Of a stretch of 64,000 nt of DNA, positions 16,731-35,499 are shown piece by piece. A model generated the notes under the pieces. That model worked only from the letters and a program-made list of their open reading frames with translations. It was not told where the DNA came from and did not search any database. Every line of letters begins with the position of its first letter. Position 1 is the first letter of the stretch. The translations under genes were made by a program, and so were the position numbers. Source of the stretch: Candidatus Poribacteria bacterium (GTDB lineage Bacteria > Poribacteria > WGA-4E > PCPOR2b); the NCBI GenBank assembly GCA_965215015.1, contig OZ244042.1, forward strand, positions 2,528,001 through 2,592,000. Direction: 5' to 3'.

Positions 16731-16767
16731 AAACTTCTGTATTGTGGCAGCGAATAATAAAACCTTT

Positions 16768-17086
16768 GCTCATGTAAAGAAATCGTATAACAGCAATCGT
16801 CGGTGCTTGAATCTCCCGACTCGTCGAGGATTCTCGGCGTTTCTAAGTCCTGATGGGACTTGAAACGTCAGAACCGATTTATCGGGGGCGGGGTTTCCTC
16901 GTCCGAATATTTCGGGGGGTGGGCAGACTAGCGGGACAACCTCCCGATAGGATCGGGATTTAAATTGCTTTGAATCCTCAATGCTTCATCGGGGGCAACT
17001 TATGGTTGCCCGTCTTTAGTCTTGTTCTTTTATTTTGGGAGATTCAGTTAATTCGCGGCTGCTTTGCACTTTCTTTTTTTCTGCCC
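16768..17086. repeat. Composite cluster of REP-like hairpins between degenerate MITE-type ends
   Basis: GCTCATGTAAAGAAATCGT...TTTGCACTTTCTTTT enclosing GGGGCGGGGTTTCCTCGTCC, TCCCGATAGGATCGGGA, GGGCAACTTATGGTTGCCC. Confidence 0.5.
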
Positions 17087-17093
17087 TAAAATC

Positions 17094-18158: not shown

Positions 18159-18324
18159 TTTTTTCCCTTTATAATTTTAGCTGTAGGTACACTTTCTGAT
18201 AACATTCTTAAAAGAGATGGGAAGGATTTTAAATTATTGTGTTCAGAAAAGTATACCATATCGCTAGCAAGTATTCGTAATTTAACTCACGAATTGTTTA
18301 AATTCTACCCGGAGGTACAGCGTT

Positions 18325-19185
18325 ATGATATATGGTTCAGGTAGCCACACCTATGAAGTGCAAAAAGATTGGGGACAACTCCCCGAAGGTTGGAAATTTG
18401 GTTGGATCCCCGCAGTCGCGGTGGATTCACAAGACAGGATTTATGTGTACAGCCGAAGCGAACGTCCGATGGTTGTGTTCGATCGCGAAGGTAACTTCCT
18501 TGCATCGTGGGGGGAGGACATCCTCAAGGATTCACACGGCATTTTTATCGATGCCGAGGATCACATCTATTGTGTTGAGCGAGAGGTGCATGTTATGCAC
18601 AAATTTACCTCTGCCGGAGAGCTCCTGATGACGTTGGGGACCCCCGATCAGCCCGGTGCAGAGGGTGAACCTTTCAATTTGCCGACAGACCTCGCGCTCG
18701 GTCCTGACGGCGAGATGTTCATCAGTGATGGATACGGCAATGCACGGATCCACAAATACTCCCCAGATGGTGAGTACATTATGTCTTGGGGAGCACCGGG
18801 AACAGGTCGGGGCGAATTCGATCTACCACACTGTGTCCGGGTAGACCGTCACAACCGTGTACTGGTCGCAGACCGAGCGAACAATCGCATCCAGTTTTTC
18901 ACGCTTGATGGCGAATATATCGACGAGTGGGGCGGATTCCTACATCCAGATACCATCTTTATTGATGACAACGATATTGTTTATGTCGCGGAGTTAGATC
19001 AGCGTGTCACGATTCTGACGCTTGATGGCGAGATTATTACCCAATGGGGCAGCGAGCGCGGCAGCACTGTGCCCGGCGAGTTCTTCGCCTGTCCACACGG
19101 TATCTGGGCGGATTCGCGGGGCGATCTCTATGTCAGCGAAGTGCAGGCGGATGGACGCTTACAGAAGTTTGTCCGACAAAAGTAA
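18325..19185 (+). CDS. NHL-repeat protein, peptidyl-alpha-hydroxyglycine alpha-amidating lyase (PAL)-like
   Basis: FNLPTD, SDGYGNARIHK, FDLPH, ADRANNRIQ, CPHG. Confidence 0.9.
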   Translation: MIYGSGSHTYEVQKDWGQLPEGWKFGWIPAVAVDSQDRIYVYSRSERPMVVFDREGNFLASWGEDILKDSHGIFIDAEDHIYCVEREVHVMHKFTSAGELLMTLGTPDQPGAEGEPFNLPTDLALGPDGEMFISDGYGNARIHKYSPDGEYIMSWGAPGTGRGEFDLPHCVRVDRHNRVLVADRANNRIQFFTLDGEYIDEWGGFLHPDTIFIDDNDIVYVAELDQRVTILTLDGEIITQWGSERGSTVPGEFFACPHGIWADSRGDLYVSEVQADGRLQKFVRQK

Positions 19186-19233
19186 CCTGATTTTAGCGCG
19201 TCGTAGGGTAGTTTATACTAAGGAGTCGAGCAA

Positions 19234-20046
19234 ATGTTGGATATGCAAGGTGCCGGGCGTCGTGTGCTCGTCACTGGAGGTGCTAGTGGTTTCGGCTTGG
19301 CTATTGCCCGGACGCTGCTCGCCCAGCGGGCACACGTAGCAATCGGCGATATTGATTCCGAGCAGTTGCAAGAAGCCACCCGAAGCTTGGATAAGGGCGA
19401 CGATGTACTGCCCTTAGTGCTCGACGTCACCTCACCCGTTTCAGTACAGTCGGCGGTAGAAGCTTGTCAAGAAACCTTTGGCGGACTGGATACGCTAATC
19501 AATTCAGCGGGCGTCATCCACTTTGCACCCCTCGCGGAAATTCGTGAGACGGATTGGGACCGCGTGGTAGACATAGATCTGAAGGGGCCGTTTTTGTGTA
19601 GCCAAGCGGCAGCACCGTTGCTGTGCAAAAGCGGACAGCGTGGACGTATCGTCAACATCGGTTCCGATGCGGCAAAGATTGGCTGTCCAATGATTCTCTC
19701 GTACTGTGCAGCCAAGTTTGGCGTCGTCGGCTTGACCAAGGCATTGGCTGCCGAGTTGGCATCTTACGGGGTAACTGTCAACTGTGTTTGTCCGGTGGGT
19801 GTTTCGACAACCGGTATGGGACAAACAGTTCTCGACTGGAAAATTAGCACGACAGGTCAGAAAACCAATGAAATTCTCGCAGAAACCGCGGCGGGCATTC
19901 CACTCAAGCGCAATGCCACCGTGGCGGATGTGGTCAATGCTGTGATGTTCTTTCTGTCCGATGAGTCAGCCTTTTTAACAGGTATTGCACTTGATGTTGA
20001 TGGCGGGTTGCTCAGTACTATGCCGATACCGGGGACTCAAGAATAA
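19234..20046 (+). CDS. SDR family oxidoreductase
   Basis: TGGASGFG, INSAG, YCAAK catalytic motif, DGG. Confidence 0.93.
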   Translation: MLDMQGAGRRVLVTGGASGFGLAIARTLLAQRAHVAIGDIDSEQLQEATRSLDKGDDVLPLVLDVTSPVSVQSAVEACQETFGGLDTLINSAGVIHFAPLAEIRETDWDRVVDIDLKGPFLCSQAAAPLLCKSGQRGRIVNIGSDAAKIGCPMILSYCAAKFGVVGLTKALAAELASYGVTVNCVCPVGVSTTGMGQTVLDWKISTTGQKTNEILAETAAGIPLKRNATVADVVNAVMFFLSDESAFLTGIALDVDGGLLSTMPIPGTQE

Positions 20047-20068
20047 CCCTCTCAAAGGAGGAATGTCA

Positions 20069-20380
20069 ATGCAGCGGTCGCTTTTGTTATGCGTGTGAAG
20101 GAAGGGCAGCAAGAGAGCAGTTTGGCAAGAAGTGCTGATAGACCTACAACAGGCAGGCGTTCATGAAATGAGCATCTTCATGTTTGGCTTACAACTTTTC
20201 CTTTACATGGAGGTGGAGGATTACGCGGAAGCCGCTCGTATTCTGGCAGATAGAGACGATTCTGTACGTTGGAAAGAATACATGGCACCGATCATGGAAA
20301 GTGCGCCCGGCGAAATTTACGATCCAGCTAAGGCTTATCCGGAAGGTTTACCTGAAGTGTTTTATTGGCAAGCCGATTGA
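20069..20380 (+). pseudogene. L-rhamnose mutarotase-like pseudogene
   Basis: Strong RBS+ATG; VAFVMRVKEGQQE lies in a shifted frame; EYxxRH segment missing; VWQEVL..LQQAGVHEMSIF...LPEVFY retained. Confidence 0.75.
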
Positions 20381-20420
20381 GCCGCAATGAGTAATTCGGT
20401 TTGGCACAGCGAACATAATC

Positions 20421-20534
20421 GGCTCATGTCAAAAGGAAGTGCAAAGCACGAATAGAACCCGAGTTTTCCCCGGCCTCGGGATCCTCTCGGACTTGAAAAC
20501 CTGGTTTCTATTGCACCATTTCTTAATATGAGCA
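20421..20534. mobile_element. ~114-bp MITE-like element
   Basis: TIRs GGCTCATGTCAAAAGGAAGTGCAA / TTGCACCATTTCTTAATATGAGC; inner stem ATAGAACCCGAGTTTTC/GAAAACCTGGTTTCTAT. Confidence 0.6.
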
Positions 20535-20545
20535 ACATGATTTAT

Positions 20546-21884
20546 TTCATTTACCCCCATTTTTTTTTGGTTATAGATTTGAGATATTTTTATGATTTAG
20601 GATAGTGAGAATACCTGTCATTAAGGGTGTTTGCATGTATCTCCCCTGCACAGTGGGAGTGTGAACCATGGATTGAGACACCACCCGCTCCACGCCTCAG
20701 CCACCACTCGCTTTATCACGGTAATGAGTGAGTATATTTTAGTCCGTGTGTTGAATGTTTTTGCCCATCGATCGCCTGACTTTTGATAGGTGATAAACAG
20801 TAAGCCATAACTGATACAAGCTAAGAGCCATAACAGGTTGATGCGGGCTTTTGACGGTTTTTTGAGTCTCAAGCTGCCAAAGCCAAAACCGGTCTTGATG
20901 TCCCGAAAGCCGTGTTCAATCTGCATTCTTCGCTTATAATAGTGGTATATTTGACGCCCCGTCAGATGACTTGAAATCAGATACATCGGTTCAGCCAACC
21001 GCGCCTCTCTGACGACATACAGGTTGAGTCGAATCGGCTCGGTTAAGTGATAGAGAATCTGTGGATAGAACCCCGTTTCCTGCAACTGTTCTGCCTTTTT
21101 AACAGTGCCCCAGACGGTCATGCGCGCGTTACGACACACGCGGATGATAAACGGAATCCGTTGTGTCTTGAGAAACTTTATCACATATTTAGCACGCGCG
21201 AAGCCTCTATCGAATATCAACGTGGCTTCACACGGGGGCGGTAAAATCGCTTCTGTCTTTTGATACAGTGTGAGACAAAAGCGTTGGATAATCTCATTAT
21301 GGCTGGTATAGGTCAACTGTTGAATCTCAGCATCGGTGTAGAGGTGCCAGTAGATAGGAACCGCCCGGCGGCGGAACGGCACCGCGGCAACAATCGCTTT
21401 GAAATGGCCAAACACCTGGGTTTCATCCACTAAAATCAACCGGCGTCCGGCGTGACGTTCACAGACCCGGCGGAGCACAAAGCCCAACCAGCACCCCATC
21501 ACCGCGTCAATAGGAAAGCGACGAGCTAAGAATCGAAGCAGGCGTTTCTGTTTCGTCTTTTGATGTTTGACGGCTACTGGCAAGCGTAAAGCAATTTCGT
21601 TTATCCGAAACTTCTGGGCCAACACAATGGCTAGGATCGTGAGTATCAGGTTTTTTAACGCCGGTTTTTTCAATACGGGGTTGAAAATCTCGGTCAGAGT
21701 GGTTATCATAGAACTGGGATTCACCCGCTTATGGCGGTGGGTGCCTTTCATAATACCTCCTTGTTTAAAACAATGGTTATTTTATACAGGGAGGTATTTT
21801 ACCATATTTGATAACCCTTTCTCACATCTAGACCTCGCAAAAACAACCAACATTACAACTCTAAAAAAAATGGGGGTAAGTGAG
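20546..21884 (-). mobile_element. IS4-family insertion sequence
   Basis: TIRs TCATTTACCCCCATTTTTTTT / AAAAAAAATGGGGGTAAGTGA around one transposase; no clear TSD. Confidence 0.85.
20621..21751 (-). CDS. IS4-family DDE transposase
   Basis: LVDET, FDRGF, YKRRMQIEHGFRDIK (YREK motif). Confidence 0.92.
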   Translation of the reverse strand: MKGTHRHKRVNPSSMITTLTEIFNPVLKKPALKNLILTILAIVLAQKFRINEIALRLPVAVKHQKTKQKRLLRFLARRFPIDAVMGCWLGFVLRRVCERHAGRRLILVDETQVFGHFKAIVAAVPFRRRAVPIYWHLYTDAEIQQLTYTSHNEIIQRFCLTLYQKTEAILPPPCEATLIFDRGFARAKYVIKFLKTQRIPFIIRVCRNARMTVWGTVKKAEQLQETGFYPQILYHLTEPIRLNLYVVREARLAEPMYLISSHLTGRQIYHYYKRRMQIEHGFRDIKTGFGFGSLRLKKPSKARINLLWLLACISYGLLFITYQKSGDRWAKTFNTRTKIYSLITVIKRVVAEAWSGWCLNPWFTLPLCRGDTCKHP

Positions 21885-21947
21885 AATAATGATGTGACGT
21901 GGTTTGAGTAAAGAATTAAATTTGTTGCTTGACATGAGCATAAGCAC

Positions 21948-21976
21948 TTGATCTCTGCATTCTTTTTTGTTATAAT
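21948..21976 (+). promoter_or_regulatory. Sigma70-type promoter for sulfite reductase gene
   Basis: TTGATC-17-TATAAT with TG extension. Confidence 0.6.
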
Positions 21977-22197
21977 ATGATTCTATGAATTTGATCGGAA
22001 AAGGCGCAGAAACCAATTTTTACGACTAAGAGGCAAGACTAGGAAAAATTCGCCCCATTGGACCATAATAATTCGGACGATAACAACTTACCGAAGTATC
22101 AGCATTCAGAACAACGTAATAGATTAGAATATCAAACTCCATCAGCGATAGCGTTGTTCATACGAACCCTTCAACCCCAATTCGGAAGGAGTCAATA

Positions 22198-24636
22198 ATG
22201 GCGACAGAAAATTTAGTACCTTTTAACGCGGAGGCAATAGATCCAGATGATGCCCGTGCAATTGAAATTTATGAGATGCAGCTGGATCGTGTCCAAGCGG
22301 GTCAGATGCCGGAGGAGATTTTCCTCGAATTTAGACTGCGTCACGGTGTTTACGGGCAGCGCGATGAAGGTTCACAAATGATTCGCGTAAAGATTCCATT
22401 CGGCGGTCTAAACGCGGCACAACTGGAAATGTTGGCTGATGTTGCCGAAGAATTTTCGGATAATATCATTCATATCACGACTCGCCAAGATGTGCAGTAT
22501 CACTATGTGGATATTAACAATACGCCGGAGTTAATGCGTCGGTTGGCGTCAGTTGACATAACAACCAAGGAAGCGTGTGGTAATGTGGTTCGGAATGTCA
22601 CCGCTTGCCCGCTTTCTGGCGTGTGTAACGATGAACCGTTTGATGTAACGTCTCACTCCAAGGCACTGTCCGCCTTCCTGTTGGGTCATCAGGATGCACA
22701 AGATTTCGGACGTAAGTTCAAGATCGCGTTTTCCGGCTGCCATGAACATGCTTGCGGCTTAGGATACATGCACGATATCGGTGCAGTTGCGGTGATTAAA
22801 GAGATTGACGGCAAACCGAAGCGTGGATTTAAGTTGCTCGTCGGTGGTGGGCTTGGTGCTGTGCCACATCAGGCAAAAGTTTTTGATGAGTTTGTGCCTG
22901 AGGAGGAATTGTTGCCAATTTCACAGGCGATCTCGAAGGTATTCACCCGTCTCGGGGAACGTAAAAATCGCAATAAGGCGCGGATGAAGTTTGTCGTGGC
23001 AAAACTTGGTATTGAAGAATTTCGTCGCCTTGTGTTGGAAGAGCGTGAACAGTTACGCCATGACCCCGCGTGGACAGCTCATCTCGGCAATCTTGATGTG
23101 TATGACGAAACACCACTGAAGCCACCGACGCAGCTCAATGGCGCGTCAAAACCGGAAGGGTTTGATCCGTGGCATGCCTCAAACGTGCGTCCACAACGAC
23201 AGCCGGGATACGCAGTCGTCAATATCACGTTGCCGCTCGGAGACATCACCGCGGATCAAGCCCGGGCGTTGGCAGATATTTCGCGCAATTATGTGAAGGA
23301 CACCATTCGCACGACCGTTGAGCAGAATCTCGTTTTGCGTTGGGTCAGCATGAGCGATCTACCTGCGCTTTACCAGGAGCTCAAAGAAATAGGCTTGGGC
23401 GCATCGGGTGCTGAGAGTACTGTTGATATTACAGCATGTCCCGGCACCGATTCCTGCAAACTGGGTATCTCATCTTCTCGTGGGTTAGCTGCTTACTTGA
23501 GGAATTACTTCATCGAGACCGGTGTGAAGGAGGAGATTCAAGATCTGCGAATCAAGATCAGCGGTTGCCCCAATTCATGCGGTCAGCACCACATCGCAAA
23601 TATCGGGTTCTTTGGCTCATCACGACGTATGGGTAAACATATCGCCCCATATTATCAAGTCATGTTGGGGGGGCACGCTACCGAGAATGCGGGGGCTTAT
23701 GGACTTGCCGCCGGAAAGATTCACGGCAAGAACATCCCACAATTCATCGAGCACTTGACCGGACGATACCTTGAGGAACGGCAAGAGGACGAACCATTCA
23801 CCGATTATATTGCGAGACTTGGCAAGGTTAAGATTAAGGCAATCCTCCGCGAGTATGATAAGATCCCTACCTTCGAGGAAGATCCCAGCTACTATATCGA
23901 CACCGGCGACACGAAGGAATTTCAACTCAAGACGGGTGTTGGTGAATGTGCAGGGCAGTTGGTAGAGTTGGTATCGTTCATACTTGAGGAAGCGGATCGG
24001 CTAATCTATGAGTCGGGGGTTGATCTGGAGAATGATGAATATGTGGATTCGGCTCAACACGCTTATGAAGCGATGATCAAAGCCGCGGACGCATTGCTGA
24101 CGACCGAAGGGCTGCAACACATTGACGACGAGACGACGGTTCGAGAGTTCCGAAGTCGGTTCTTTGAGCCGGGCATTGTTTTCCCCGGTTTTGGAGCGCA
24201 TCTGTTCAAGGCGGTCGAGGAGGATTCCAGTACCTTTGATAGGGAGCTAACGCACCGCCGCGTCGAGGAAGCGACTCTCTTTGTTGAGGAAGCACATAAC
24301 GTCTACGGGCGGATGCGGATTCGACAGGAGGAGGAATCGAGCACTAAGAAGCGCGAAGCTAGACCGGCACGTATCCCCAAGGCACCGCCGAAAGCAGAGA
24401 AGGTCGAGGAGATTGTTGACAGTCTTGACCTCAAGGGTGTGGCGTGTCCGTTCAACTACGTGCAAGCCAAAATTCGCTTGGAGACGATGAATGTCGGTCA
24501 GCTGCTGGAAATCACGATTGACGATGGCGAACCGATTGAAAATGTCCCTAAGAGCCTCACGAATGATGGGCATAAGATTACTGATACCAAGAAGATTGGT
24601 CAGCACTATCGACTCGTGATTCGTAAAGGTGAATAA
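22198..24636 (+). CDS. Siroheme/4Fe-4S sulfite (or nitrite) reductase fused to a helical domain and C-terminal TusA domain
   Basis: GVYGQR, HITTRQ, RKFKIAFSGC, ACPGTDSC...ISGCPNSCGQH; C-terminal LDLKGVACPFNY. Confidence 0.9.
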   Translation: MATENLVPFNAEAIDPDDARAIEIYEMQLDRVQAGQMPEEIFLEFRLRHGVYGQRDEGSQMIRVKIPFGGLNAAQLEMLADVAEEFSDNIIHITTRQDVQYHYVDINNTPELMRRLASVDITTKEACGNVVRNVTACPLSGVCNDEPFDVTSHSKALSAFLLGHQDAQDFGRKFKIAFSGCHEHACGLGYMHDIGAVAVIKEIDGKPKRGFKLLVGGGLGAVPHQAKVFDEFVPEEELLPISQAISKVFTRLGERKNRNKARMKFVVAKLGIEEFRRLVLEEREQLRHDPAWTAHLGNLDVYDETPLKPPTQLNGASKPEGFDPWHASNVRPQRQPGYAVVNITLPLGDITADQARALADISRNYVKDTIRTTVEQNLVLRWVSMSDLPALYQELKEIGLGASGAESTVDITACPGTDSCKLGISSSRGLAAYLRNYFIETGVKEEIQDLRIKISGCPNSCGQHHIANIGFFGSSRRMGKHIAPYYQVMLGGHATENAGAYGLAAGKIHGKNIPQFIEHLTGRYLEERQEDEPFTDYIARLGKVKIKAILREYDKIPTFEEDPSYYIDTGDTKEFQLKTGVGECAGQLVELVSFILEEADRLIYESGVDLENDEYVDSAQHAYEAMIKAADALLTTEGLQHIDDETTVREFRSRFFEPGIVFPGFGAHLFKAVEEDSSTFDRELTHRRVEEATLFVEEAHNVYGRMRIRQEEESSTKKREARPARIPKAPPKAEKVEEIVDSLDLKGVACPFNYVQAKIRLETMNVGQLLEITIDDGEPIENVPKSLTNDGHKITDTKKIGQHYRLVIRKGE

Positions 24637-24656
24637 CGGATAAGGTGTTGTCAAAG

Positions 24657-24701
24657 TAAAGCGTGATGGACTGAAGCGGGGTTCGTCACGCTTTATTTTT
24701 T
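24657..24701 (+). terminator. Intrinsic terminator
   Basis: TAAAGCGTGATGGACT/GGTTCGTCACGCTTTA plus T-run. Confidence 0.75.
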
Positions 24702-24852
24702 GGGATGTTTGATGGCTAAGATTGAGATGCTTTTTGACATGAAGAAAGCAATAGGTGTCGAAAGACTGAAATGATCCCAGAATCGTTCTATTGACTGTCC
24801 TCTAGCAGTCCTCACCGTAACATCACTTTCCTGTTTGAAAAGGTATTTAACC

Positions 24853-25671
24853 ATGAATCAGAAATTTAAGATAAATTCAAAACTGAAAAAGTGGCTCAAG
24901 TGGATGGAGATTATTCAAGACGACATACAAATGCTTCTACGGGATACTAACATGTTCTGGGAAGTCCAAGACATCATCCGTGAGAATCCGGGTATCCAAA
25001 GGCCGAGTGCTTTCTATCGCTATCTTGGAAGGACTTATTTGTCTCATGCGCTAGTAGGGCTACGTCGGCAAATCAAACCGCAGAAGGACAGTATATCTTT
25101 TGTGGGATTGCTTGATGATATTGCTAAAAACCCTGAAGAGCTGTCTCGGAACTATTACCGTTCTCTCTATTCTCACCCTGATGGTCCCGACATCAACCAA
25201 ATCGAGATCGAGGGTAGGGAGGAACTTGAAGATATAGGGATTACCGGCAATTCTCAACTGAAAGAGTTGATACAGATGGATGACTTCGCACCATACGCAG
25301 ATGCCAGCGGAGAGCATGTGTGCCCCGATATGGTGAAAGACGATATAGATAAACTCAAGAAGACTGCAACAGCATGTGAGGATTTTGCTGATAAACGCAT
25401 TGCCCATCGGGATAAGAAAGAGCCGGAAGATGTCCCAAAGTTCAATGAATTGGATGATTGCATTAAATTGCTCGACAAGACGTATGTGAAATATCATCTC
25501 CTGTTTTACGCTGAATCAATAGATACGTTGATGCCAACCTATCAATATGAGTGGAAGGCTATTTTTTTGGAACCATGGTTAAAGACTGGTTTTGGAAGTG
25601 CCGAAGGACTTATTCACATCGGTGAAGATTTTGATGACGAACTCCCCGATTTTAAGGACTATATGGAATGA
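24853..25671 (+). CDS. AbiU2-like HEPN domain protein with antitoxin-like C-terminal tail
   Basis: Helical protein with DSISF and DKRIAH; tail GFGSAEGLIHIGEDFDDELPDFKDYME. Confidence 0.7.
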   Translation: MNQKFKINSKLKKWLKWMEIIQDDIQMLLRDTNMFWEVQDIIRENPGIQRPSAFYRYLGRTYLSHALVGLRRQIKPQKDSISFVGLLDDIAKNPEELSRNYYRSLYSHPDGPDINQIEIEGREELEDIGITGNSQLKELIQMDDFAPYADASGEHVCPDMVKDDIDKLKKTATACEDFADKRIAHRDKKEPEDVPKFNELDDCIKLLDKTYVKYHLLFYAESIDTLMPTYQYEWKAIFLEPWLKTGFGSAEGLIHIGEDFDDELPDFKDYME

Positions 25672-26054
25672 AATATCTGCTGGATACATGTACGCTACTT
25701 TGGTTTCTTGCTGGCGACGCAAAACTCAGCCGCAAAGCACGACAGTTGATTGATGATTCAAGTAATGAGAAATTCCTCAGCATCGTCAGTCTATGGGAGA
25801 TAGCAATTAAGGTAGGGTTAGGGAAAATTGATTTAGACAAACCGTTCGAGCAGATATTTCCAGAGAGACTGGATTTCAATCATATTTGGATATTGGATAT
25901 CACAGTTAATAGCCTCGCAAAGTTGACTACGTTACCCTTGCATCACCGAGATCCGTTTGACCGTTTGATAATTGCTCAAGGGCTTACCGAAGGATTTCCA
26001 ATAATTAGCGTAGATGAAACCTTTGATGCTTACGGTGTAAGCAGAGAATGGTAA
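25668..26054 (+). CDS. vapC: PIN domain toxin (VapC family)
   Basis: LLDTCTLLW, SLWEIAIK, HRDPFDRLIIAQ, SVD; ATGA overlap with upstream gene. Confidence 0.93.
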   Translation: MKYLLDTCTLLWFLAGDAKLSRKARQLIDDSSNEKFLSIVSLWEIAIKVGLGKIDLDKPFEQIFPERLDFNHIWILDITVNSLAKLTTLPLHHRDPFDRLIIAQGLTEGFPIISVDETFDAYGVSREW

Positions 26055-26214
26055 TGATAGGACAAATACGGAACCAATGTTGGATTTCAAGTACAAAGGT
26101 TAGTAAAGAGAGTAAGTGGTTGAAATTACAACTTTCAGCACCCCCCCCCTACTCTTCTTAGAAACCGACAGCTAAGTTTTTTTGGGGGGATTGAAAGGAG
26201 AAACTTATTAAGCA

Positions 26215-27268
26215 ATGACACTTAATGAACACCTTGATGACATACACCACGATTTAACAAGAGGGGTATTTGCAAATGAGGCATCAGTTTCTCAGGGAAT
26301 CATACTTAGGTTACTCGGTGCACTGGGTTGGCCAAAGTATGATACGCAGGTTATCGTTCCTGAATATTCAGTTGAGGGTAGAAGGGTAGATTATGCTCTG
26401 TGCCACCCGCTGTCAAAGCCTCTAGTTTTCATTGAAGTCAAACAGGTTGGCCAAATTGAAGGGGCAGAGAGACAATTATTTGAATACGCTTTTCACACAG
26501 GGGTTCCAATCGCTGTCCTCACTGATGGTCGGGAATGGCACTTTTTTCAACCGGGTGGCCAAGGAGATTACGGAGAACGTCGGGTATGTAAACTGGATCT
26601 GATCGAAACAGACAATGAGGAGATTTTGAAACGTCTTAACCGATACTTGAAATACGAGTCGATACGCACCGGTGAAGCCATTACGGCAATCGAAAACGAC
26701 TATCGGAATATCTCCAAGCAGAGACAGATTGAGAGCAGTTTGCCAGAGGCATGGACTGAATTGGTGGAGGAGGCAGATGAACTTTTGATAGATGGAGTAG
26801 CGGAGAGAACGGAAAGTCTGTGTGGGCATAAACCAACTAGCGAGCAAGTGTTAGCTTTCCTGAAAAGTCTAAATGGGGATAGATCAACCCAGGGAGCCCC
26901 TTCTCCACCAACAGACTCCGGGGATAGGCCCCCCCTCGAGAAAAACCCCTTCTCCACCAACAAACCCCTCGGGTAGAAAGCTACCGACAAACCTTATCGT
27001 AACTATGCCTAATGGAGAAGAGATTGCTCATAATAGCGCAAAGAAAACCTTTGTTGAGGTAATTGAAAGGCTAGGAATAGAGAGGGTGAGAAGTGTTTAT
27101 CCTGATCTCTTCTCTACCTCATCAATTAAATATGGATATCAGGTTGGTCAGTATTATACAAAAGAGAGAGACACAGTGAACAAGAAGCGAATCCTTGAAC
27201 ATATTGCCGCCCGGCTTGGTGTAGGGTTGGAAATAGAGATACGCCTCAAAGGCGCCTCAAAGGATTGA
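26215..27268 (+). pseudogene. HsdR_N-type PD-(D/E)xK nuclease, copy 1, +1 frameshift at a C7 run
   Basis: Near-identical to 27775-28824; stops at 26976; C-terminal domain continues in the 26873-27268 frame. Confidence 0.85.
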
Positions 27269-27541
27269 ATTAATCAATCGAGGGTTGCAAGAATATCAAT
27301 AACAGACATGGAGGCACACCGACCCATTGTTACAATCAGCAGCGACGCCTGTGATTTTATTGATGTTCTTAAGTTTTCAGCAGCCTCTGTTCTTAAGAGT
27401 TCTTCGATAAACTGGTTTTACGAAGAACTACACTTGTTCGTTAAGTTTTTAGTAAAGGAGCGAAACTGATTTCGTCTCCTTATGTCCGAAATGGGTGTTA
27501 AAATCATTTATAAAAAAAGGAGTTTCTGATTACAGCAAGCT

Positions 27542-27685
27542 ATGGATTTACAACAGATTAACATCAAGGTCTTCGTCAGAGAAGATAGTCATATCAATTA
27601 CGAAAATTTCATCAGGGTTTTCAACCGATACGGAACCAATGTTGGATTTCAAGTACAAAGGTTAGTAAAGAGAGTAAGTGGTTGA
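27542..27685 (+). pseudogene. Truncated duplicate of the first 29 codons of the 29093 gene
   Basis: MDLQQINIKVFVREDSHINYENFIRVFNR then junction-derived sequence to TGA. Confidence 0.85.
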
Positions 27686-27774
27686 CATTACAATTTTCAG
27701 CACCCCCCCTACTCGTCTTAGAAACCGACAGCTGAGTTTTTTTGGGGGGATTGAAAGGAGAAACTTATTAAGCA

Positions 27775-28824
27775 ATGACACTCAATCAACACCTTGATGA
27801 CATACACCACGATTTAACAAGAGGGGTATTTGCAAATGAGGCATCAGTTTCTCAGGGAATCATACTTAGGTTACTCGGTGCACTGGGTTGGCCAAAGTAT
27901 GATACGCAGGTTATCGTTCCTGAATATTCAGTTGAGGGTAGAAGGGTAGATTATGCTCTGTGCCACCCGCCGTCAAAGCCTCTAGTTTTCATTGAAGTCA
28001 AACAGGTTGGCCAAATTGAAGGGGCAGAGAGACAATTATTTGAATACGCTTTTCACACAGGGGTTCCAATCGCTGTCCTCACTGATGGTCGGGAATGGCA
28101 CTTTTTTCAACCGGGTGGCCAAGGAGATTACGGAGAACGTCGGGTATGTAAACTGGATCTGATCGAAACAGACAATGAGGAGATTTTGAAACGTCTTAAC
28201 CGATACTTGAAATACGAGTCGATACGCACCGGTGAAGCCATTACGGCAATCGAAAACGACTATCGGAATATCTCCAAGCAGAGACAGATTGAGAGAAGTT
28301 TGCCAGAGGCATGGACTAAATTGGTGGAGGACGCAGATGAATTTTTGATAGATGTAGTAGCGAAGATAACGGAAAGTCTGTGTGGGCATAAACCAACTAG
28401 CGAGCAAGTATTAGCTTTCCTGAAAAGCCTAAATAGGGATAGACCAACCCAGGGAGCCCCTTCTCCACCAACAGGCTCCGAGGATAGGCCACCCCCGAAA
28501 AAGGATCCTTCTCCACCAACAGACTCCTCGGGTAGAAAGCCATCGACAAACCTTATCGTAACTATGCCCAATAGAGAAAGGATTGCTCATCATAGCGCAA
28601 GGAAAACCTTTACTGAGGTAATTGAAAGGCTAGGAATAGATAGAGTGAGAAGTGTTTATCCTGATCTCTTCTCTACCTCGAAATTACCTTATAGCCATCG
28701 GGTTGGTCAGTATTATATAAAAGATGTGGCAGGCACAAGGACCAGAAAGCGAACCCTTGAACGTATTGCCGCCCGGCTTGGTGTAGAGTTGGAAATAGAG
28801 ATACGCCTCAAAGGATTGAATTAA
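27775..28824 (+). CDS. Stand-alone HsdR N-terminal-type restriction nuclease with Pro-rich linker and C-terminal domain, copy 2
   Basis: VPEY..RVDYAL..FIEVK, QLFEYAF, LTDGREW; PSPPT linker repeats. Confidence 0.85.
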   Translation: MTLNQHLDDIHHDLTRGVFANEASVSQGIILRLLGALGWPKYDTQVIVPEYSVEGRRVDYALCHPPSKPLVFIEVKQVGQIEGAERQLFEYAFHTGVPIAVLTDGREWHFFQPGGQGDYGERRVCKLDLIETDNEEILKRLNRYLKYESIRTGEAITAIENDYRNISKQRQIERSLPEAWTKLVEDADEFLIDVVAKITESLCGHKPTSEQVLAFLKSLNRDRPTQGAPSPPTGSEDRPPPKKDPSPPTDSSGRKPSTNLIVTMPNRERIAHHSARKTFTEVIERLGIDRVRSVYPDLFSTSKLPYSHRVGQYYIKDVAGTRTRKRTLERIAARLGVELEIEIRLKGLN

Positions 28825-29092
28825 TCAATCGAGGGTTGCAAGAATATCAATAACAGACATGGAGGCACACTGACCCATTGTTACAATCAGCGGCGACGCC
28901 TGTGATTTTATTGATGTTCTTAAGTTTTCAGCAGCCTCTGTTCTTAAGAGTTCTTCGATAAACTGGTTTTACGAAGAACTACACTTGTTCGTTAAGTTTT
29001 TAGTAAAGGAGCGAAACTGATTTCGTCTCCTTATGCCCGAAATGGGTGTTAAAATCATTTATAAAAAAAGGAGTTTCTGATTACAGCAAGCT

Positions 29093-29674
29093 ATGGATTT
29101 ACAACAGATTAACATCAAGGTCTTCGTCACAGAAGACAGTCATATCAATTACGAAAATTTCATCAGGGTTTTCAACCGATGGATGGCGGAAGGCGGCCCC
29201 GATGAATACCTGAACTACGCTGATTACTCGTTTACCTATGCGGGCCCCGGCGTTCTGCTAATTGCCAAAAGCACAAATTATAGCATAGATGCAGCCAGAA
29301 GTCGGCACGGCTTTCTTTATAACCGGAAGCATAAGGTAGACGGGGATAATCGCGAAAAAATTCATCAGGCATTCATCGAGACACTGCAAAGATGTGTCCG
29401 TTTAGAAGAAGCCGAAGAACTGGAGAACGCAGTGCATCTAAACGGGGATGAAATCCTATTTATGATTAATAACCGCCATATCGCGCCGAATACCCAAGAG
29501 ATGTTTGAGGCGATTCAACCGGATTTAACCGCTGTGCTTGAGCAGATGTACAGTGGGAATGACTTTACTGTTGAACGTACATCTGAAGATGTGCGGGAAC
29601 GGTTTGCAGTTCAAATCTCTGCGCGTTCAGGCAAAGGAATTTCGGATCTGCTAGCGAACTTGGAAAATAATTAG
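29093..29674 (+). CDS. Conserved hypothetical protein, probably sulfur-assimilation associated
   Basis: 193 aa; ADY...GPGVLLI...YNRK pattern that I recall next to sulfite reductase/MoeB genes; co-oriented with moeB. Confidence 0.75.
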   Translation: MDLQQINIKVFVTEDSHINYENFIRVFNRWMAEGGPDEYLNYADYSFTYAGPGVLLIAKSTNYSIDAARSRHGFLYNRKHKVDGDNREKIHQAFIETLQRCVRLEEAEELENAVHLNGDEILFMINNRHIAPNTQEMFEAIQPDLTAVLEQMYSGNDFTVERTSEDVRERFAVQISARSGKGISDLLANLENN

Positions 29675-29712
29675 AATCAATTCTTTGCAGTTCACAACGA
29701 GGAAATTTTTAG

Positions 29713-30519
29713 ATGTACAATTTTAGTAATGAACAAATTGAGCGATATAGTCGACACATCATCCTCAAAGAGGTTGGGGGGATGGGGCAAACCAAGCTGC
29801 TTGAATCGAAGGTACTTCTCATCGGTGCAGGCGGGCTTGGATCACCTGCGGGGTTGTATCTAGCCGCAGCTGGTGTTGGAACGCTCGGAATCGTCGACGA
29901 CGATGTTGTAGATATGAGCAATCTCCAACGACAGGTTCTTCACGGAACGAGTGATGTGGGCAAACTGAAAACAGAGTCCGCAAAGGAAACGCTCGCAGAC
30001 ATCAATCCTGATGTTACAGTTATCACACATACTGAGAAGATTGTTTCGGCAAATGCTTTTGAAATCCTTGAGGATTACGACCTCATTGTTGATGGGTGTG
30101 ATAATTTACCGACCCGCTATCTGTTGAATGATGCCAGTGTGATGCTCGGCAAACCGATTGTGCATGGCAGCATCTTCCAGTTTGAAGGGCAGGTCACTGT
30201 GTTTCATCCCGGCGGGGGACCGTGCTACCGCTGCCTCTACCCGTCACCTCCGCCACCTGATATGGTGCCAAGTTGTCAAGAAGCGGGTGTGATTGGTGTG
30301 TTACCGGGCATTGTCGGGAATGTGCAAGCCGTTGAAGCCATCAAAGTTCTACTTGACATTGGGAAGCCGCTAATCGGTCAACTGCTTCTATTCAACGCTT
30401 TATCGATGGAGTTTAAGAAACTCACGCTTCGTCAAGACCCTGGATGTCCCGCCTGTGGTAAAAACCCAACGATTCACGAATTGATTGACTATGAAGAGTT
30501 TTGTCAAGTGCGTTGGTAA
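29713..30519 (+). CDS. moeB: MoeB/ThiF family adenylyltransferase without rhodanese domain
   Basis: RYSRHI, GAGGLG, SNLQRQ, CYRC, PSCQEAG, CPAC. Confidence 0.9.
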   Translation: MYNFSNEQIERYSRHIILKEVGGMGQTKLLESKVLLIGAGGLGSPAGLYLAAAGVGTLGIVDDDVVDMSNLQRQVLHGTSDVGKLKTESAKETLADINPDVTVITHTEKIVSANAFEILEDYDLIVDGCDNLPTRYLLNDASVMLGKPIVHGSIFQFEGQVTVFHPGGGPCYRCLYPSPPPPDMVPSCQEAGVIGVLPGIVGNVQAVEAIKVLLDIGKPLIGQLLLFNALSMEFKKLTLRQDPGCPACGKNPTIHELIDYEEFCQVRW

Positions 30520-30542
30520 TCTATCAATCCTACACGCACAAC

Positions 30543-30580
30543 AAGCCCCAAGACAGGAGTATGGAGTCTTGGGGCTTTTT
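30543..30580 (+). terminator. Intrinsic terminator
   Basis: AAGCCCCAAGAC...GTCTTGGGGCTTTTT. Confidence 0.75.
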
Positions 30581-30715
30581 AGGTAACATCCGATTCTTGA
30601 TGCAACCCATCCCTACTTTTGTAGCAATATCTACCGCCGTGTCAAGACCTATAAAAAAGCGGCGTGGAGATTGGGTGCCTCGTCAAAAGCATGTTGTAGA
30701 GTGATATGTTTGTGC

Positions 30716-30744
30716 TTGACAGCACCTATGATGGGTGCTATACT
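30716..30744 (+). promoter_or_regulatory. Sigma70 promoter with palindromic spacer
   Basis: TTGACA-17-TATACT; AGCACC-N7-GGTGCT fills the spacer. Confidence 0.7.
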
Positions 30745-30863
30745 AAAGCCTATTCTAAAAAATAAATTGCACCCGCAATAAAGCCTATCCAATCGTGAGG
30801 CTGCGAAGATCTGGGCCTTTGAGGATAGGTCAATATAAAAACTGTGAAAGGAGCTATTGAATC

Positions 30864-31910
30864 ATGTTGACAAAAAGAGTGGTTTTATTAGGAATGATTG
30901 TATTGGCGGCTGTGTTGGTAACAACCGGACTCCATGCTAGCGGACAGTGGAACATTTTGCAACAAAGTGATCAAGAGGATGTTCGGAATTATAATGGAAT
31001 TGCTTTTGTGAGTCCCGAGGAGGGTTGGGTCGCCGGTGTTTCAGAGTTAGATATGGAGAATCCCGGATATATTGGGCACACCATGGACGGGGGTAAAACG
31101 TGGGAAAAACAAGAAGCGGGAGATCCTATCAATCAGATGCTCACAGATATCTACTTTTTTGATAAGAAACATGGGTGGGCAGTCGGAGAAGCAGGGTTGA
31201 TTGTTGGAACGGCAAACGCTGGCAAACGCTGGGATATCCAAACGAGCAAGGTCGGAAATGCTCTTAAAGGCGTTCACTTTGTGAGTCCCAAAACAGGTTA
31301 TGCGGTTGGAATGAATGAGACAATTGTTCAGACCAGCAACGGTGGAAAACAATGGAACCTGCTTCGCGGCGGTGAGGTTGCCGCTGCTGTGGGCGATGAA
31401 GAAACAATCGTGTTTAATGCTGTTCAATTTATTGATGAGTCTAGCGGCTGGGTGACAGGGGTTAGGATTAGTCCGGAAACCGGGGGCCAAGATGGCTTAG
31501 TTCAGAAAACTACTGATGGCGGACAAACATGGATGGACCAACCCACAAATATCTCGGATATTCTCGAAGACATTTTCTTTATAGATGCCGATAACGGTTG
31601 GACGGTTGGGGAAAACGGAGTCGTCTTACACACCACAAACGGTGGTAATACTTGGGATATTCAAACAAGTGGGACGGAGGAAAAGCTATTGAGTGTCAGC
31701 TTTGCCGATACTGCTGTCGGCTGGGCCACTGGGGGCGATCTCGGCGTCAACGTTATCATTCATACAACCGACGGTGGAACGACATGGGTAACGCAGACCA
31801 TTGAGGACCCCGTTATTAGTAAGATGCCTGTGTATGGTGTTTTTGCGTTAGACGCAAAGAACGTTTGGGCTACAGGTCTGAACGGTTTTGTTTTGTCATC
31901 TTCAAAGTAG
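30864..31910 (+). CDS. Exported YCF48-like beta-propeller
   Basis: Repeated GWxVG...TxDGGxTW Asp-box units; signal peptide. Confidence 0.9.
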   Translation: MLTKRVVLLGMIVLAAVLVTTGLHASGQWNILQQSDQEDVRNYNGIAFVSPEEGWVAGVSELDMENPGYIGHTMDGGKTWEKQEAGDPINQMLTDIYFFDKKHGWAVGEAGLIVGTANAGKRWDIQTSKVGNALKGVHFVSPKTGYAVGMNETIVQTSNGGKQWNLLRGGEVAAAVGDEETIVFNAVQFIDESSGWVTGVRISPETGGQDGLVQKTTDGGQTWMDQPTNISDILEDIFFIDADNGWTVGENGVVLHTTNGGNTWDIQTSGTEEKLLSVSFADTAVGWATGGDLGVNVIIHTTDGGTTWVTQTIEDPVISKMPVYGVFALDAKNVWATGLNGFVLSSSK

Positions 31911-31973
31911 AACCTATCAGTTTGATTGCAACCCTAAGTTAGGAGAATCTATTTTCAAAAATTGAGGTGATAG

Positions 31974-33140
31974 ATGAATTTTGCAGATCGAATGGACCGT
32001 TTGGGAACGGAATCTGCCTTCGAGGTACTTGCCAAAGCCAAGGAATTAGAAGCGCAGGGTAGAGACATCGTCCATCTCGAAATTGGTCAGCCAGATTTCA
32101 TAACCCCTGCGAATATTTGCGAGGCAGCCTTCAAGGCAATGAAGGATGGTCACACCGGATATGGACCATCTGCGGGTTTATTGGAGTTTCGTGAAGTTAT
32201 CGCTGAGCATATTTCGGAGACGCGGGGTGTAGAGATTCATCCGGATGAAGTCACTGTTACACCCGGTGCCAAGCCTATCATTTTCTTTACCATTTTGGCA
32301 CTTATCAATGAAGGAGATGAAGTTATCTATCCTAACCCCGGATTTCCGATTTATGAATCTGTCATTGATTTCATTGACGGGAAAGCAGTCCCTTTGCCAT
32401 TACGTGAGGAGGTTGATTTTCGCTTCCGGATTGAAGATCTTGAGGCTTTCATCTCGGATCGGACGAAACTGTTGATTATCAACTCACCACAAAACCCGAC
32501 AGGCGGCACGTTGGCAAAAAGTGATTTGGAAGCAATTGCCGAGCTAGCAATTAAGCACGATTTCTATGTGCTGACAGATGAGGTATATTCGCGAATCCTT
32601 TATGAAGGTGTCCATGATAGTCTCATCAGTCTACCGGGTATGAAGGAGCGCACGATTCTGCTTGAGGGACATTCCAAGACCTATGCTATGACCGGCTGGC
32701 GGTTGGGTTATGGGATAGCTCCCACAGAATTGGCGGATAAGATTACACAGTTGACTATAAATTCCAACTCGTGCACTGCAACTTTCACGCAATTTGCAGG
32801 GATAGAGGCACTGAAGGGGCCGCAGGATTTTGTCCACGAAATGGTTACTGAGTTTAGAACACGACGTGACGCAATTGTTGACGGTCTCAATGCAATTGAG
32901 GGTGTGAGTTGTATCAAACCCCTTGGTGCATTCTACGTGTTCCCGAATGTCTCACAGCTGCCCCTTTCCTGCCAAGACCTATCGGACTACCTGCTTGAAG
33001 ACGCAGGGGTTGCAGTCTTGCCGGGCACTGCTTTTGGTAAACTTGGCGATGGCTACTTGAGACTGTCGTATGCAAATTCGCTGGAGAATATTCAGGAAGC
33101 CCTAGCCCGGATGGATTCAGCAATTTCAAGGATTCGGTAG
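31974..33140 (+). CDS. Class I/II PLP aminotransferase (aspartate aminotransferase-like)
   Basis: IGQPDF, NSPQNPTG, DEVY, SKTYAMTGWRLG. Confidence 0.93.
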   Translation: MNFADRMDRLGTESAFEVLAKAKELEAQGRDIVHLEIGQPDFITPANICEAAFKAMKDGHTGYGPSAGLLEFREVIAEHISETRGVEIHPDEVTVTPGAKPIIFFTILALINEGDEVIYPNPGFPIYESVIDFIDGKAVPLPLREEVDFRFRIEDLEAFISDRTKLLIINSPQNPTGGTLAKSDLEAIAELAIKHDFYVLTDEVYSRILYEGVHDSLISLPGMKERTILLEGHSKTYAMTGWRLGYGIAPTELADKITQLTINSNSCTATFTQFAGIEALKGPQDFVHEMVTEFRTRRDAIVDGLNAIEGVSCIKPLGAFYVFPNVSQLPLSCQDLSDYLLEDAGVAVLPGTAFGKLGDGYLRLSYANSLENIQEALARMDSAISRIR

Positions 33141-33168
33141 TTGCTTTTAATTTTCGCAGGTAAACTTG

Positions 33169-34083
33169 ATGTCCAACAAAGCAACCGCTCGTGTTCCAGC
33201 GAGCACAACAAACCTAGGACCGGGCTTTGATGTCCTTGGGTTAGCCCTACAACTTTATAGCACTATCTCGCTTGAAGATATTGACGAGGGGACGGAAATT
33301 GAGGTCACCGGCGTTGATGTGGATAAGCTCTCCAACAACGAGAGCAATATTGCTTACCGAGCCGCAAAATTGGTTTTCGACAAGTGTGGATATAAGCCGA
33401 CAGGTTTGCGATTGGTTCTAACAAATGGCATTCCCGCAATCCGGGGATTGGGAGGCAGTGGCACAGCAATACTCGGTGGATTGTTGACAGCCAATGCCTT
33501 ATGTGATGAACCGTTTTCTCGGTCTGAACTGCTCGATTTTGCCACAGAGTTTGAAGGGCATCCGGATAATGTTGCTGCATCACTGCTAGGTGGTTTGGTT
33601 ATATCTATGATGCGGGGTAACCACGTACATTCGATCCAATTGGATTGTGGTTCAGATCTGCGTGTTGTTGTGGCAATCCCCGACTTTTCGTTGTCCACCG
33701 AAGCAGCCCGTAGCGTTCTGCCCCAAACAGTTGATTTCGCTGATGCTATCCACAATGTGAGCCGTTCTTCGATGCTAGTGGCAGCAATTGCAACAGGCAA
33801 ATTAGACATGTTATCACTTGCCATGGCAGATCGACTCCATCAGCCGTATCGAACTTCTCTGATCCCCGGATTTGATGATGTGGCTGAATCCGCAATGCGT
33901 GCAGGAGCATTAAGTGTGGCTCTGAGTGGAGCGGGCCCCAGTGTTGCAGCTTACTGCACAACATCAACGGATGAGGTCGGTTCACAAATGAGTGAAGCGT
34001 TTGAGCGAAATCAGATTTCTTGCGACATCAAGGTGTTATCCATCGATTCCGCCGGCGCAACTGTGCAGATGAGCAAAATCTAA
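33169..34083 (+). CDS. thrB: Homoserine kinase
   Basis: PASTTNLGPGFD, EGHPDN, DRLHQPYR, LSGAGP. Confidence 0.95.
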   Translation: MSNKATARVPASTTNLGPGFDVLGLALQLYSTISLEDIDEGTEIEVTGVDVDKLSNNESNIAYRAAKLVFDKCGYKPTGLRLVLTNGIPAIRGLGGSGTAILGGLLTANALCDEPFSRSELLDFATEFEGHPDNVAASLLGGLVISMMRGNHVHSIQLDCGSDLRVVVAIPDFSLSTEAARSVLPQTVDFADAIHNVSRSSMLVAAIATGKLDMLSLAMADRLHQPYRTSLIPGFDDVAESAMRAGALSVALSGAGPSVAAYCTTSTDEVGSQMSEAFERNQISCDIKVLSIDSAGATVQMSKI

Positions 34084-34200
34084 TCACCTGAAATCTGTTT
34101 TCTAGATTCTTAGCCAATCCGTTGATTCTTCCCTCCTACCTCTTATTTTCTGTTTCGTTCACTATTTACTGGGCATTGTAAAAAGTAACAGAGCGAGCAA

Positions 34201-35499
34201 ATGATGAATACAGACACCGCAAAAATCTACACAAAGGGCGGCAGAGGCGGAAACGGCTGCATCAGTTTTCGTCGAGAAAAGTTTGTGCAGCGCGGCGGGC
34301 CGAATGGTGGCGACGGTGGGCAAGGTGGAAGTGTCATTTTAGAAGTTACGGAGGGGATGAGCACCCTCATCGATTTCCGATACAATCCTCATCAAGTTGC
34401 GGAGAATGGTCAACACGGCATGGGGAAACTGATGCACGGGGCGGATGCAGCAGATAGAATCGTCAAAGTCCCAGCGGGTACGATTGTGCGGGTGCCAGAG
34501 ACGGAGGAGGTCATTGCCGACCTGAAGGAGATAGGGCAGCGTGCAGTTGTCGCACGGGGTGGAATTGGTGGCAAAGGAAATGCACGTTTCAAGAGCAGCA
34601 CGTTTCAGACCCCACGTGTCGCTGAGAAGGGAGAACCGGGGGAAGAACGTACTATCGCGCTAGAGGTCAAGCTGATTGCAGACGTTGGCTTGGTCGGCTA
34701 TCCAAATGGAGGTAAATCGACGCTGCTCGCACGGACCTCCGCCGCAAAGCCGAAGATTGCGGACTACCCCTTTACAACACTGACTCCCAACTTAGGCGTT
34801 GTCCGAGTGGATCCTGAACACAACTTTGTGCTTGCAGATATTCCCGGTCTCATTGAGGGCGCACATGAAGGGGCAGGGCTGGGGCACGACTTTCTGCGGC
34901 ATATCGAGCGGACGAAGATGCTCCTCCACGTCATCGATACTGCTTCCATCGATGGACGCGACCCAATCACCGATTACGAACAGATCAACACAGAGCTCGA
35001 ACGGTACAACCCCCGCTTAACTCGCCTGCCACAGTTAATTGTCCTTAATAAAATGGACCTGCCCGATGCACAGACTAATTTGCAGCGCGTCAAAGATTAC
35101 TTCGGGAAACGGCGTGTCTTTCCGATCTCTGCGGTCACTGGTGAGGGAGTAGACCGGCTGATTAGAGCAACCTACCAACTTCTGCAGCGGATAAATGAAC
35201 GAATCCGTGAGAGACAAGAAGCCGTGGAGCCTCAACCAACCTTCCACATCCCCAAACCTAATGAACGATTTGAACTTATTGCGCGGAAAGATCGTTTTAT
35301 CGTGCGCGGCGAAGAACCGCGTCGCGCTGTTCTCATGACCGATATGGAAAATGATCAGGCATTGGTTCTCCTCCATCGGAAACTGAAAAAAATGGGCGTC
35401 CTGAATGCACTCATCAAAGCTGGTGTCACGGAAGGCGATACTGTTCAGGTTGATGCCTTCGAGTTTACGTTCAGTCCTGATGAAATCAACACACATTGA
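34201..35499 (+). CDS. obgE: GTPase Obg/CgtA with C-terminal OCT domain
   Basis: SFRREK, GGPNGGDGG, KIADYPFTT, DIPGLIEGA, NKMD. Confidence 0.97.
   Translation: MMNTDTAKIYTKGGRGGNGCISFRREKFVQRGGPNGGDGGQGGSVILEVTEGMSTLIDFRYNPHQVAENGQHGMGKLMHGADAADRIVKVPAGTIVRVPETEEVIADLKEIGQRAVVARGGIGGKGNARFKSSTFQTPRVAEKGEPGEERTIALEVKLIADVGLVGYPNGGKSTLLARTSAAKPKIADYPFTTLTPNLGVVRVDPEHNFVLADIPGLIEGAHEGAGLGHDFLRHIERTKMLLHVIDTASIDGRDPITDYEQINTELERYNPRLTRLPQLIVLNKMDLPDAQTNLQRVKDYFGKRRVFPISAVTGEGVDRLIRATYQLLQRINERIRERQEAVEPQPTFHIPKPNERFELIARKDRFIVRGEEPRRAVLMTDMENDQALVLLHRKLKKMGVLNALIKAGVTEGDTVQVDAFEFTFSPDEINTH

Follow-up and report, generated by a model that had tools for sequence, protein, structure and literature searches.

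How can two nuclease genes lying head to tail in one bacterial genome remain nearly identical over their catalytic halves and yet differ extensively over their C-terminal halves, and what may such a difference mean for the proteins they encode? This question is raised by a locus in a window of 64,000 nucleotides (nt) from a Candidatus Poribacteria bacterium (contig OZ244042.1, positions 2,528,001 to 2,592,000 of the forward strand), to which all positions below refer, the upstream and downstream genes being termed copy 1 and copy 2. We lean, with moderate confidence, towards a lineage-specific tandem duplication of a two-part gene, composed of a nuclease and a SeqA-related reader, which became mosaic by homologous recombination and probably functions in type IV-like restriction.

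The locus is a direct repeat on the forward strand, in which unit 1 (26066-27627, 1,562 nt) is followed head to tail by unit 2 (27628-29180, 1,553 nt), with a start-to-start spacing of 1,562 nt. A repeat search of the window gave families D1-D6, and pairwise alignment of units 1 and 2 gave a mean identity of 95%. When compared by blastn with its own genome, a single contig of 5.94 Mb, the unit was found at these two tandem places only. It begins 12 nt 3' of a PIN gene's stop codon and extends ~88 nt into the next gene (29093-29674), which encodes a 193-amino acid (aa) protein of no known family. A truncated duplicate of this downstream gene's 5' end (27542-27627; 35 aa, 83% identity) contains the junction, 27627|27628, where a 2-nt microhomology, AT, is shared. 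The joining of a gene interior to an intergenic start with only AT in common fits illegitimate recombination and cannot be produced by a bubble between alleles. Two relatives, G003 and G004, share the gene order but have only one copy of the gene, indicating that the duplication is lineage-specific.

Differences between the copies are distributed very unevenly. An earlier note, made from the letters of this DNA alone, had described near-identical tandem nucleases with diversified C-termini, counting 3 differences in the first ~510 coding nt, 3 in a ~270-nt spacer and many, mostly non-synonymous changes in the C-terminal half. Pairwise alignment bears out these counts, with 3 substitutions in coding nt 1-519, 3 in the 270 nt of the spacer (27272-27541) and 57 in 526 nt, plus 15 gap columns, from coding nt 520 to the end. 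Near identity also extends over the upstream region of the unit (26066-26214; 4 substitutions in 147 aligned nt and a 2-nt indel, C9 versus C7) and the duplicated 5' end of the next gene (27542-27627; 2/86). The densest segment, 27119-27188 in copy 1, contains 21 of the 69 substitutions within 70 of the 1,548 aligned positions, and its chi-square value was matched in none of 200 permutations, indicating that the clustering is not due to chance. A 3-nt (one-codon) indel also distinguishes the copies, as does a direct duplication of 11 nt (CGCCTCAAAGG) at the 3' end, which separates the ending ...KGASKD (copy 1 type) from ...KGLN (copy 2). An interpretation of the ...KGLN ending as a derived 11-nt deletion was withdrawn, as comparison with G004 left its polarity unclear. 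The contrasting peptides quoted by the note (SIKYGYQ and KLPYSHR; TKERDTVNK and IKDVAGTRTR) are all present, those of copy 1 being read in a second frame, since copy 1 carries a frameshift that the note overlooked.

The two halves of the gene differ in age. By the method of Nei and Gojobori, synonymous (dS) and non-synonymous (dN) divergence between the copies was 0.0086 and 0.005, respectively, over codons 1-173, and 0.105 and 0.137 from codon 174 to the end, where 12.2 synonymous and 49.8 non-synonymous differences were counted. The 12-fold synonymous contrast (1.0 difference at 117.5 sites versus 12.2 at 123.7 sites) is significant (Fisher p=0.0028), and such a contrast requires recombination or gene conversion, not only fast evolution in place. 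Within the C-terminal half, the differences peak in two loops of the C-terminal domain, with 16 aa changes and the one-codon indel versus a single purely synonymous change; these loops correspond to 27119-27188 in copy 1 and 28678-28750 in copy 2, and the positions that differ are the most variable columns of the domain in the family as a whole. Of the two causes that had been proposed for this pattern, diversifying selection and exchange of a recognition domain, only the second is supported: dN/dS was 1.3 for the C-terminal half (p=0.43) and ~1.7 for the densest patch (p=0.57), neither significantly above 1 in a two-sequence test that has too little power. Between species, dN/dS was 0.2-0.3 for the nuclease and 0.19-0.71 for the C-terminal domain.

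Alleles found elsewhere also call for exchange of some form. In the C-terminal part, copy 2 is identical (100%) to P0001, a protein encoded on another contig, whereas copy 1 is nearest (83%) to P0002, an intact 343-aa protein with the copy 1 type of ending. In the N-terminal part, the groupings conflict with these, as copies 1 and 2 share 99% identity, and P0001 and P0002 match one another at 100% yet are distinct from both window copies. A word-based search with the window's own C-terminal domain returned P0001 and P0002 only, and the complete copy 2 protein is identical to a record in a public collection. The G004 orthologue (L006 1501-2523) lies at a dS of ~0.47 from the window copies in the nuclease, while dS in the C-terminal domain is saturated (1.8-2.7), a gap which indicates that the gene is mosaic between species too and that mosaicism is common in the family. 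Neighbouring paralogues on the same strand occur, among the matches listed, in at least four other genomes (G074, G098, G136 and G077). The G074 pair arose independently and shows a proportion of synonymous differences (pS) of ~0.1 throughout, with a non-synonymous proportion (pN) of 0.19-0.22 in the C-terminal domain versus 0.03-0.07 elsewhere, and the same two loops are affected. The G098 pair is more diverged in the N-terminal part, and the second copies in G136 and G077 match the first over the N-terminal part only.

The protein encoded by the intact copy 2 gene (27775-28824, 349 aa) consists of a PD-ExK nuclease of the HsdR-N type, a helical middle, a Pro-rich linker (residues ~221-258) and a C-terminal domain of ~85 aa (~259-346). 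Pfam HSDR_N (PF04313) was matched at 40.6 bits by copy 2 and at 39.7 bits (E 6.3e-10) by copy 1, both above the cut-off of 25.1, and the residues D59, E74 and K76, nearly invariant among 75 full-length homologues, are present in both copies. HSDR_N and HSDR_N_2 were the only Pfam matches of the 349-aa protein, with no superfamily 2 (SF2) helicase or motor domain. The family is large: 3,127 of 5,754 candidate proteins and, separately, 3,435 cluster representatives matched at E<=1e-3. Some members are named as Candidatus Poribacteria proteins (NCBI) or as 'predicted type IV restriction endonuclease' (JGI). Of 176 phylum genomes, 124 gave a match, whereas within the genus only 11 of 19 did so, individual genomes having between 0 and 6 matches. 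When JGI metagenomes were scanned with P0002, no relative was found, and a plasmid search returned one distant archaeal match only.

The C-terminal part behaves as an independent module, as it recurs behind other N-terminal domains. In G002 the last ~85 aa follow a distinct nuclease domain and in G029 a membrane anchor, and a profile of the domain matched 388 longer proteins at E<=1e-3 among 8,000 scored. Conversely, many relatives share residues 1 to ~220-250 only and carry other C-termini instead, for example DUF7669 or DUF5655. Two proteins of ~446 aa from other genomes, P0022 and P0039, contain two tandem C-terminal domains each, and within each protein the two domains differ mainly in the loop that follows YYI; those of P0022 are otherwise identical over ~58 residues. 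The genome of the window itself encodes a 345-aa paralogue (L004:1438-2475, ~536 kb) with the same nuclease and helical middle (34% identity) and a different C-terminal domain, and P0151, a protein of 1,142 aa from another genome, has a weak N-terminal HEPN_Swt1 match and ten matched stretches of middle plus C-terminal domain.

SeqA is the Escherichia coli reader of hemimethylated GATC, and several comparisons give moderate support to the C-terminal domain being a distant SeqA-like reader that may read DNA. Pfam SeqA (PF03925) was matched by the C-terminal domains of 5 of 13 relatives at 14.3-21.8 bits (best E 2e-4; cut-off 25.5) and, weakly, by that of the ~536 kb paralogue (E 0.023). When a 75-sequence profile of the domain was compared by hhalign with E. 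coli SeqA, 69 columns were aligned to its residues 103-176 at E 6.8e-4 with a probability of only 27%. The SeqA score of 25.6 exceeded those of eight neighbouring E. coli proteins (9.1-13.9) and was reached by none of 200 shuffled SeqA sequences. In this alignment, residues 318-321 of copy 2 correspond to N150-T153 of SeqA and fall within the second hypervariable patch (residues ~316-323). A passage of PMC2691817 places both Asn150 and Asn152 within the loop that binds DNA and reports that N150A/N152A abolishes binding. Relatives retain a loop motif of the T-N-T type. A search of the ESM Atlas with the C-terminal domain returned unnamed clusters only, at 0.90 or below. The earlier suggestion of a target-recognising domain is thus plausible, the module being separable and SeqA-C-like, with its differences in loops.

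Several known systems resemble parts of this arrangement. Type I HsdR proteins such as that of EcoR124I (PF04313/PF13588) share the HSDR_N match above the cut-off and the conserved D...ExK. In contrast, the window protein is 349 aa long, has no motor or helicase domain by Pfam and carries a helical middle and a separate, putative reader domain, and no HsdM or HsdS lies near its gene. PF04313, PF13588 and COG2810 are placed in one PD-(D/E)XK cluster in a passage of Steczkiewicz et al. 2012 (PMC3424549); a link of the window protein to COG2810, 'predicted type IV restriction endonuclease', is suggested by the source name of its relatives. SeqA itself has a C-domain (PF03925) that aligns collinearly over the 69 columns, including the DNA-binding loop, and is matched below threshold by relatives, whereas the window protein has no SeqA N-terminal oligomerisation domain, has its C-terminal domain fused to a nuclease and differs at the positions of Asn150 and Asn152. 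Modification-dependent nucleases of the DpnI, Mrr, MspJI and SauUSI types combine a nuclease with a reader of modified DNA. The window protein may be analogous to these, with a PD-(D/E)xK nuclease, a small putative reader and no cognate methylase beside it, but its reader would be of a different, SeqA-like kind, and it gave no match to these families in Pfam, NCBIfam or PADLOC. Restriction specificity is also known to vary by shuffling of hsdS cassettes, and phase-variable homopolymer tracts occur in restriction-modification genes. The present locus likewise joins a constant catalytic part to an exchangeable part presumed to serve recognition, and has a coding homopolymer that differs between samples; however, it consists of direct tandem copies of a whole gene and not of inverted partial cassettes, has no adjacent recombinase gene, and its tract is short (C7/C6).

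Combined, these results suggest the following course of events. The duplication would have arisen by illegitimate recombination at the 2-nt microhomology, and the C-terminal domain, tied to the nuclease by the Pro-rich linker, would act as a reader that selects which DNA is cut. Copies 1 and 2 differ in the allele of this reader half and are almost identical in the nuclease half and flanks, a mosaic produced by homologous recombination in one of two ways. Either an older duplication had its nuclease half and flanks held alike by gene conversion, or a recent duplication was followed by import of a diverged reader allele. The product may act as a stand-alone restriction nuclease of the type IV kind, dependent on modification or on sequence, with recognition widened by the two reader variants, and copy 1 is off in this genome owing to an extra C in its C7 run, the run being one C shorter and copy 1 in frame in another sample. 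Modification-dependent restriction is inferred from the architecture, the finding of no methylase nearby, the toxin-antitoxin-type neighbours and the variable genomic slot occupied by the array. More doubtful is an extension to the Poribacteria-type sponge symbionts in general, which could possess a large, previously undescribed family of stand-alone restriction nucleases with a SeqA-derived reader; its range would be widened by duplication of the reader (as tandem genes or as two readers per protein), with divergence focused on the DNA-binding loop, nuclease halves held identical by gene conversion and single copies switched on and off by homopolymer slips, giving a small innate repertoire of readers.

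If the C-terminal domain reads marks on DNA, the locus provides a natural experiment, with two near-identical nucleases differing almost only in two reader loops; with the parallels in G074, P0022 and P0039, the specificity determinants of a new type of reader would become mappable, and a SeqA-like reader would join the readers of modified DNA known to be used by restriction enzymes. A full-text literature search found no description of a fusion between a SeqA-like reader and a nuclease; a passage of PMC4738411 mentions SeqA fused to RAMA domains, not a SeqA-like domain with a nuclease. Given its abundance, with matches in 124 of 176 phylum genomes, the family may be a main component of symbiont defence. 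Considered apart from function, the pattern is of an ordinary and well-documented kind of paralogue mosaicism, and the locus is a real but modest example of bacterial variation in a probable defence gene.

A number of results weigh against the reading that we favour. Neither of the two C-terminal domains in the window gives a Pfam match and all SeqA matches obtained lie below the cut-off. The hhalign probability for SeqA is low, and SeqA had been picked from the Pfam lead, so the control comparison was not blind. Profile searches of the PDB were not significant (SeqA at E 0.86-0.95; no SeqA with a 13-sequence profile), and neither copy has Asn at the equivalents of Asn150 and Asn152, copy 2 having V318 and G320 there. 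As dN/dS is not significantly greater than 1, neutral drift of a loosely constrained domain fits the C-terminal differences as well. A search against PADLOC-DB 2.0 gave no matching system, as only a type I methyltransferase model was matched, weakly (E 3.6e-4, 16.9 bits), and presence in 124 of 176 phylum genomes is also expected of a housekeeping function. With respect to switching, the polymorphism of the tract is represented by a single contig per run, from two runs of the same study, and a C7 run is short for fast slippage.

The condition of copy 1 bears on whether it is a functional allele. Copy 1 is not one open frame in the assembly, as one extra base in the C7 run at 26929-26935 divides it into a first open reading frame of 253 aa (26215-26976), which encodes the nuclease and helical middle and ends after the frameshift, and a second of 131 aa (26873-27268), which encodes the linker and putative reader domain. 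Contigs assembled from two public sequencing runs, termed X4 and X6, differ at this site: the X6 contig lacks one letter at 26929 (depth 11.1/11.1), which places copy 1 in frame, whereas the X4 contig keeps the C7 of the window (depth of the shorter form 0/46.6). This indicates that the frameshift is real and polymorphic between samples, and the tract behaves as a polymorphic on/off site at which slippage may possibly drive switching. We consider it unlikely that copy 1 is instead a decaying pseudogene born of the duplication, with C-terminal differences that are neutral and have no bearing on specificity. The frameshift in this genome and in X4, the dN/dS of 1.3 that is indistinguishable from 1, and the extra indels in the C-terminal half are all as expected of decay. 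However, the 42 aa differences are evenly split, copy 1 having the derived state at 18 and copy 2 at 17, with 7 unpolarised, and intact copy 2 itself carries changes at positions invariant in seven outgroups, for example G267R and K324R. Moreover, the first 519 nt and the flanking non-coding DNA would not have escaped decay, X6 has an in-frame copy 1, and the copy 1 type of ending is carried by the intact P0002, the C-terminal domain of which is 83% identical to that of copy 1.

A further explanation, to which we assign a similarly low probability, is that the protein is a housekeeping or chromosome-maintenance factor, for example one acting in a MutH- or SeqA-like manner on the cell's own hemimethylated DNA, and that the duplication is incidental. 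The resemblance of the C-terminal domain to SeqA, the breadth of the family across the phylum, the presence of at least four D12-class adenine methylases in the genome and the absence of a PADLOC match are all consistent with such a role. Against it, the family is patchy within the genus (11 of 19 genomes, 0 to 6 matches per genome) and its C-terminal modules are freely swapped, and relatives are named 'predicted type IV restriction endonuclease' by one source, although this is a name only. The genomic context also speaks against it, the slot 5' of the 193-aa gene varying among relatives, with different genes in it, and the neighbours being of toxin-antitoxin type. The 193-aa protein is conserved at 89-91% aa identity in G003 and G004. 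Immediately upstream of the repeat (24835-26054), a gene for a 278-aa HEPN_AbiU2 protein (E 2e-8) with a VapB-antitoxin-like C-terminus (NCBIfam E 4e-8, below the cut-off) overlaps a gene for a 128-aa PIN protein of the VapC type by 4 nt; the arrangement resembles a PIN toxin accompanied by a HEPN-antitoxin fusion, and the pair is kept in G004 at 78-79% identity. The earlier statement that no methylase or HsdS is adjacent holds for the families scanned. Pfam searches of 15 open reading frames between 15349 and 35499 found no methylase, HsdS or recombinase gene adjacent, and genome-wide scans for D12-class methylases, N6_Mtase (15) and Methylase_S (5), which did not cover the C5 and N4 methylase families, placed none in the window, the nearest N6_Mtase being ~87 kb away.

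Divergence of the C-terminal half in place, by fast point mutation under diversifying selection alone and without recombination, is highly improbable. It would account for differences that are mostly non-synonymous and located in two loops, and the G074 pair shows that C-terminal domains can undergo faster aa change at uniform synonymous divergence. It does not account for the 12-fold synonymous difference between the halves (p=0.0028), for non-coding flanks diverged by only ~1-3% or for the different grouping of the four closest alleles by their N- and C-terminal parts.

The assembly itself was checked with Logan contigs of public runs, at the level of contigs and not of raw reads. In both X4 and X6, which belong to one study, contigs cover the copy 1-specific C-terminal half (26820-27115 and 27091-27282) and also that of copy 2 (28380-28674 and 28650-28833). 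Run X1, part of another study, yielded a contig of 58 nt that fits 27600-27657 without mismatch, covering 28 and 30 nt on either side of the junction; as a bridge was defined by at least 31 nt on both sides, this contig falls just short and is taken as a hint, not a formal bridge. An interpretation of runs X1 and X2 as having both copies of the copy 2 type was dropped, since the copy 1-specific C-terminal half was uncovered at 95% likeness and lack of cover is not evidence. Contig depths in X4 and X6 were similar in the flanks and the copy-specific pieces and approximately double in the shared pieces, but depth does not equal copy number and was not used as support. It is scarcely credible that, as the earlier note had considered under its own heading of refutation, the assembler placed in tandem two alleles of one single-copy gene from different strains, for although the C-terminal halves are allele-like, P0001 and P0002 exist elsewhere as separate proteins and, among the contigs listed, none bridges the junction with 31 nt on both sides, the junction joins the interior of the downstream gene to an intergenic unit start, which an allele bubble cannot do, the genome is one 5.94-Mb contig, the 58-nt contig matches the junction without mismatch, and X4 and X6 each hold both types of C-terminal half. 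At window position 27540, each of the four runs has a contig in which the beginning of the 193-aa gene's 5' end is joined to 255 nt of different sequence, indicating that the same samples also hold another arrangement upstream of that gene.

Further features of the locus were recorded. A DDE transposase gene lies on the reverse strand at 20621-21751 (Pfam DDE_Tnp_1, E 1.3e-16), ~4.3 kb upstream of the repeat, and no tRNA was found in 15000-35000. Between the unit start and the ribosome-binding site of each copy, homopolymer tracts are present (26141-26189 and 27703-27749), composed of a C run, T7 and G6; the C run is C9 5' of copy 1 (26141-26149) and C7 5' of copy 2 (27703-27709), and its length is the sole indel between the copies in the upstream region. 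A promoter and terminator scan gave no excess over shuffled sequences, and Rfam gave no match at E<=1 in 25900-29300, the duplicated spacers included. At the position of the spacer, G003 and G004 have an open reading frame of ~130 aa that is absent from this genome. The duplicated spacer (27272-27541 and 28825-29092) folds better than its shuffled counterparts (z -2.62), and a 32-nt palindrome is present in both spacers, at 27398-27429 and 28949-28980.

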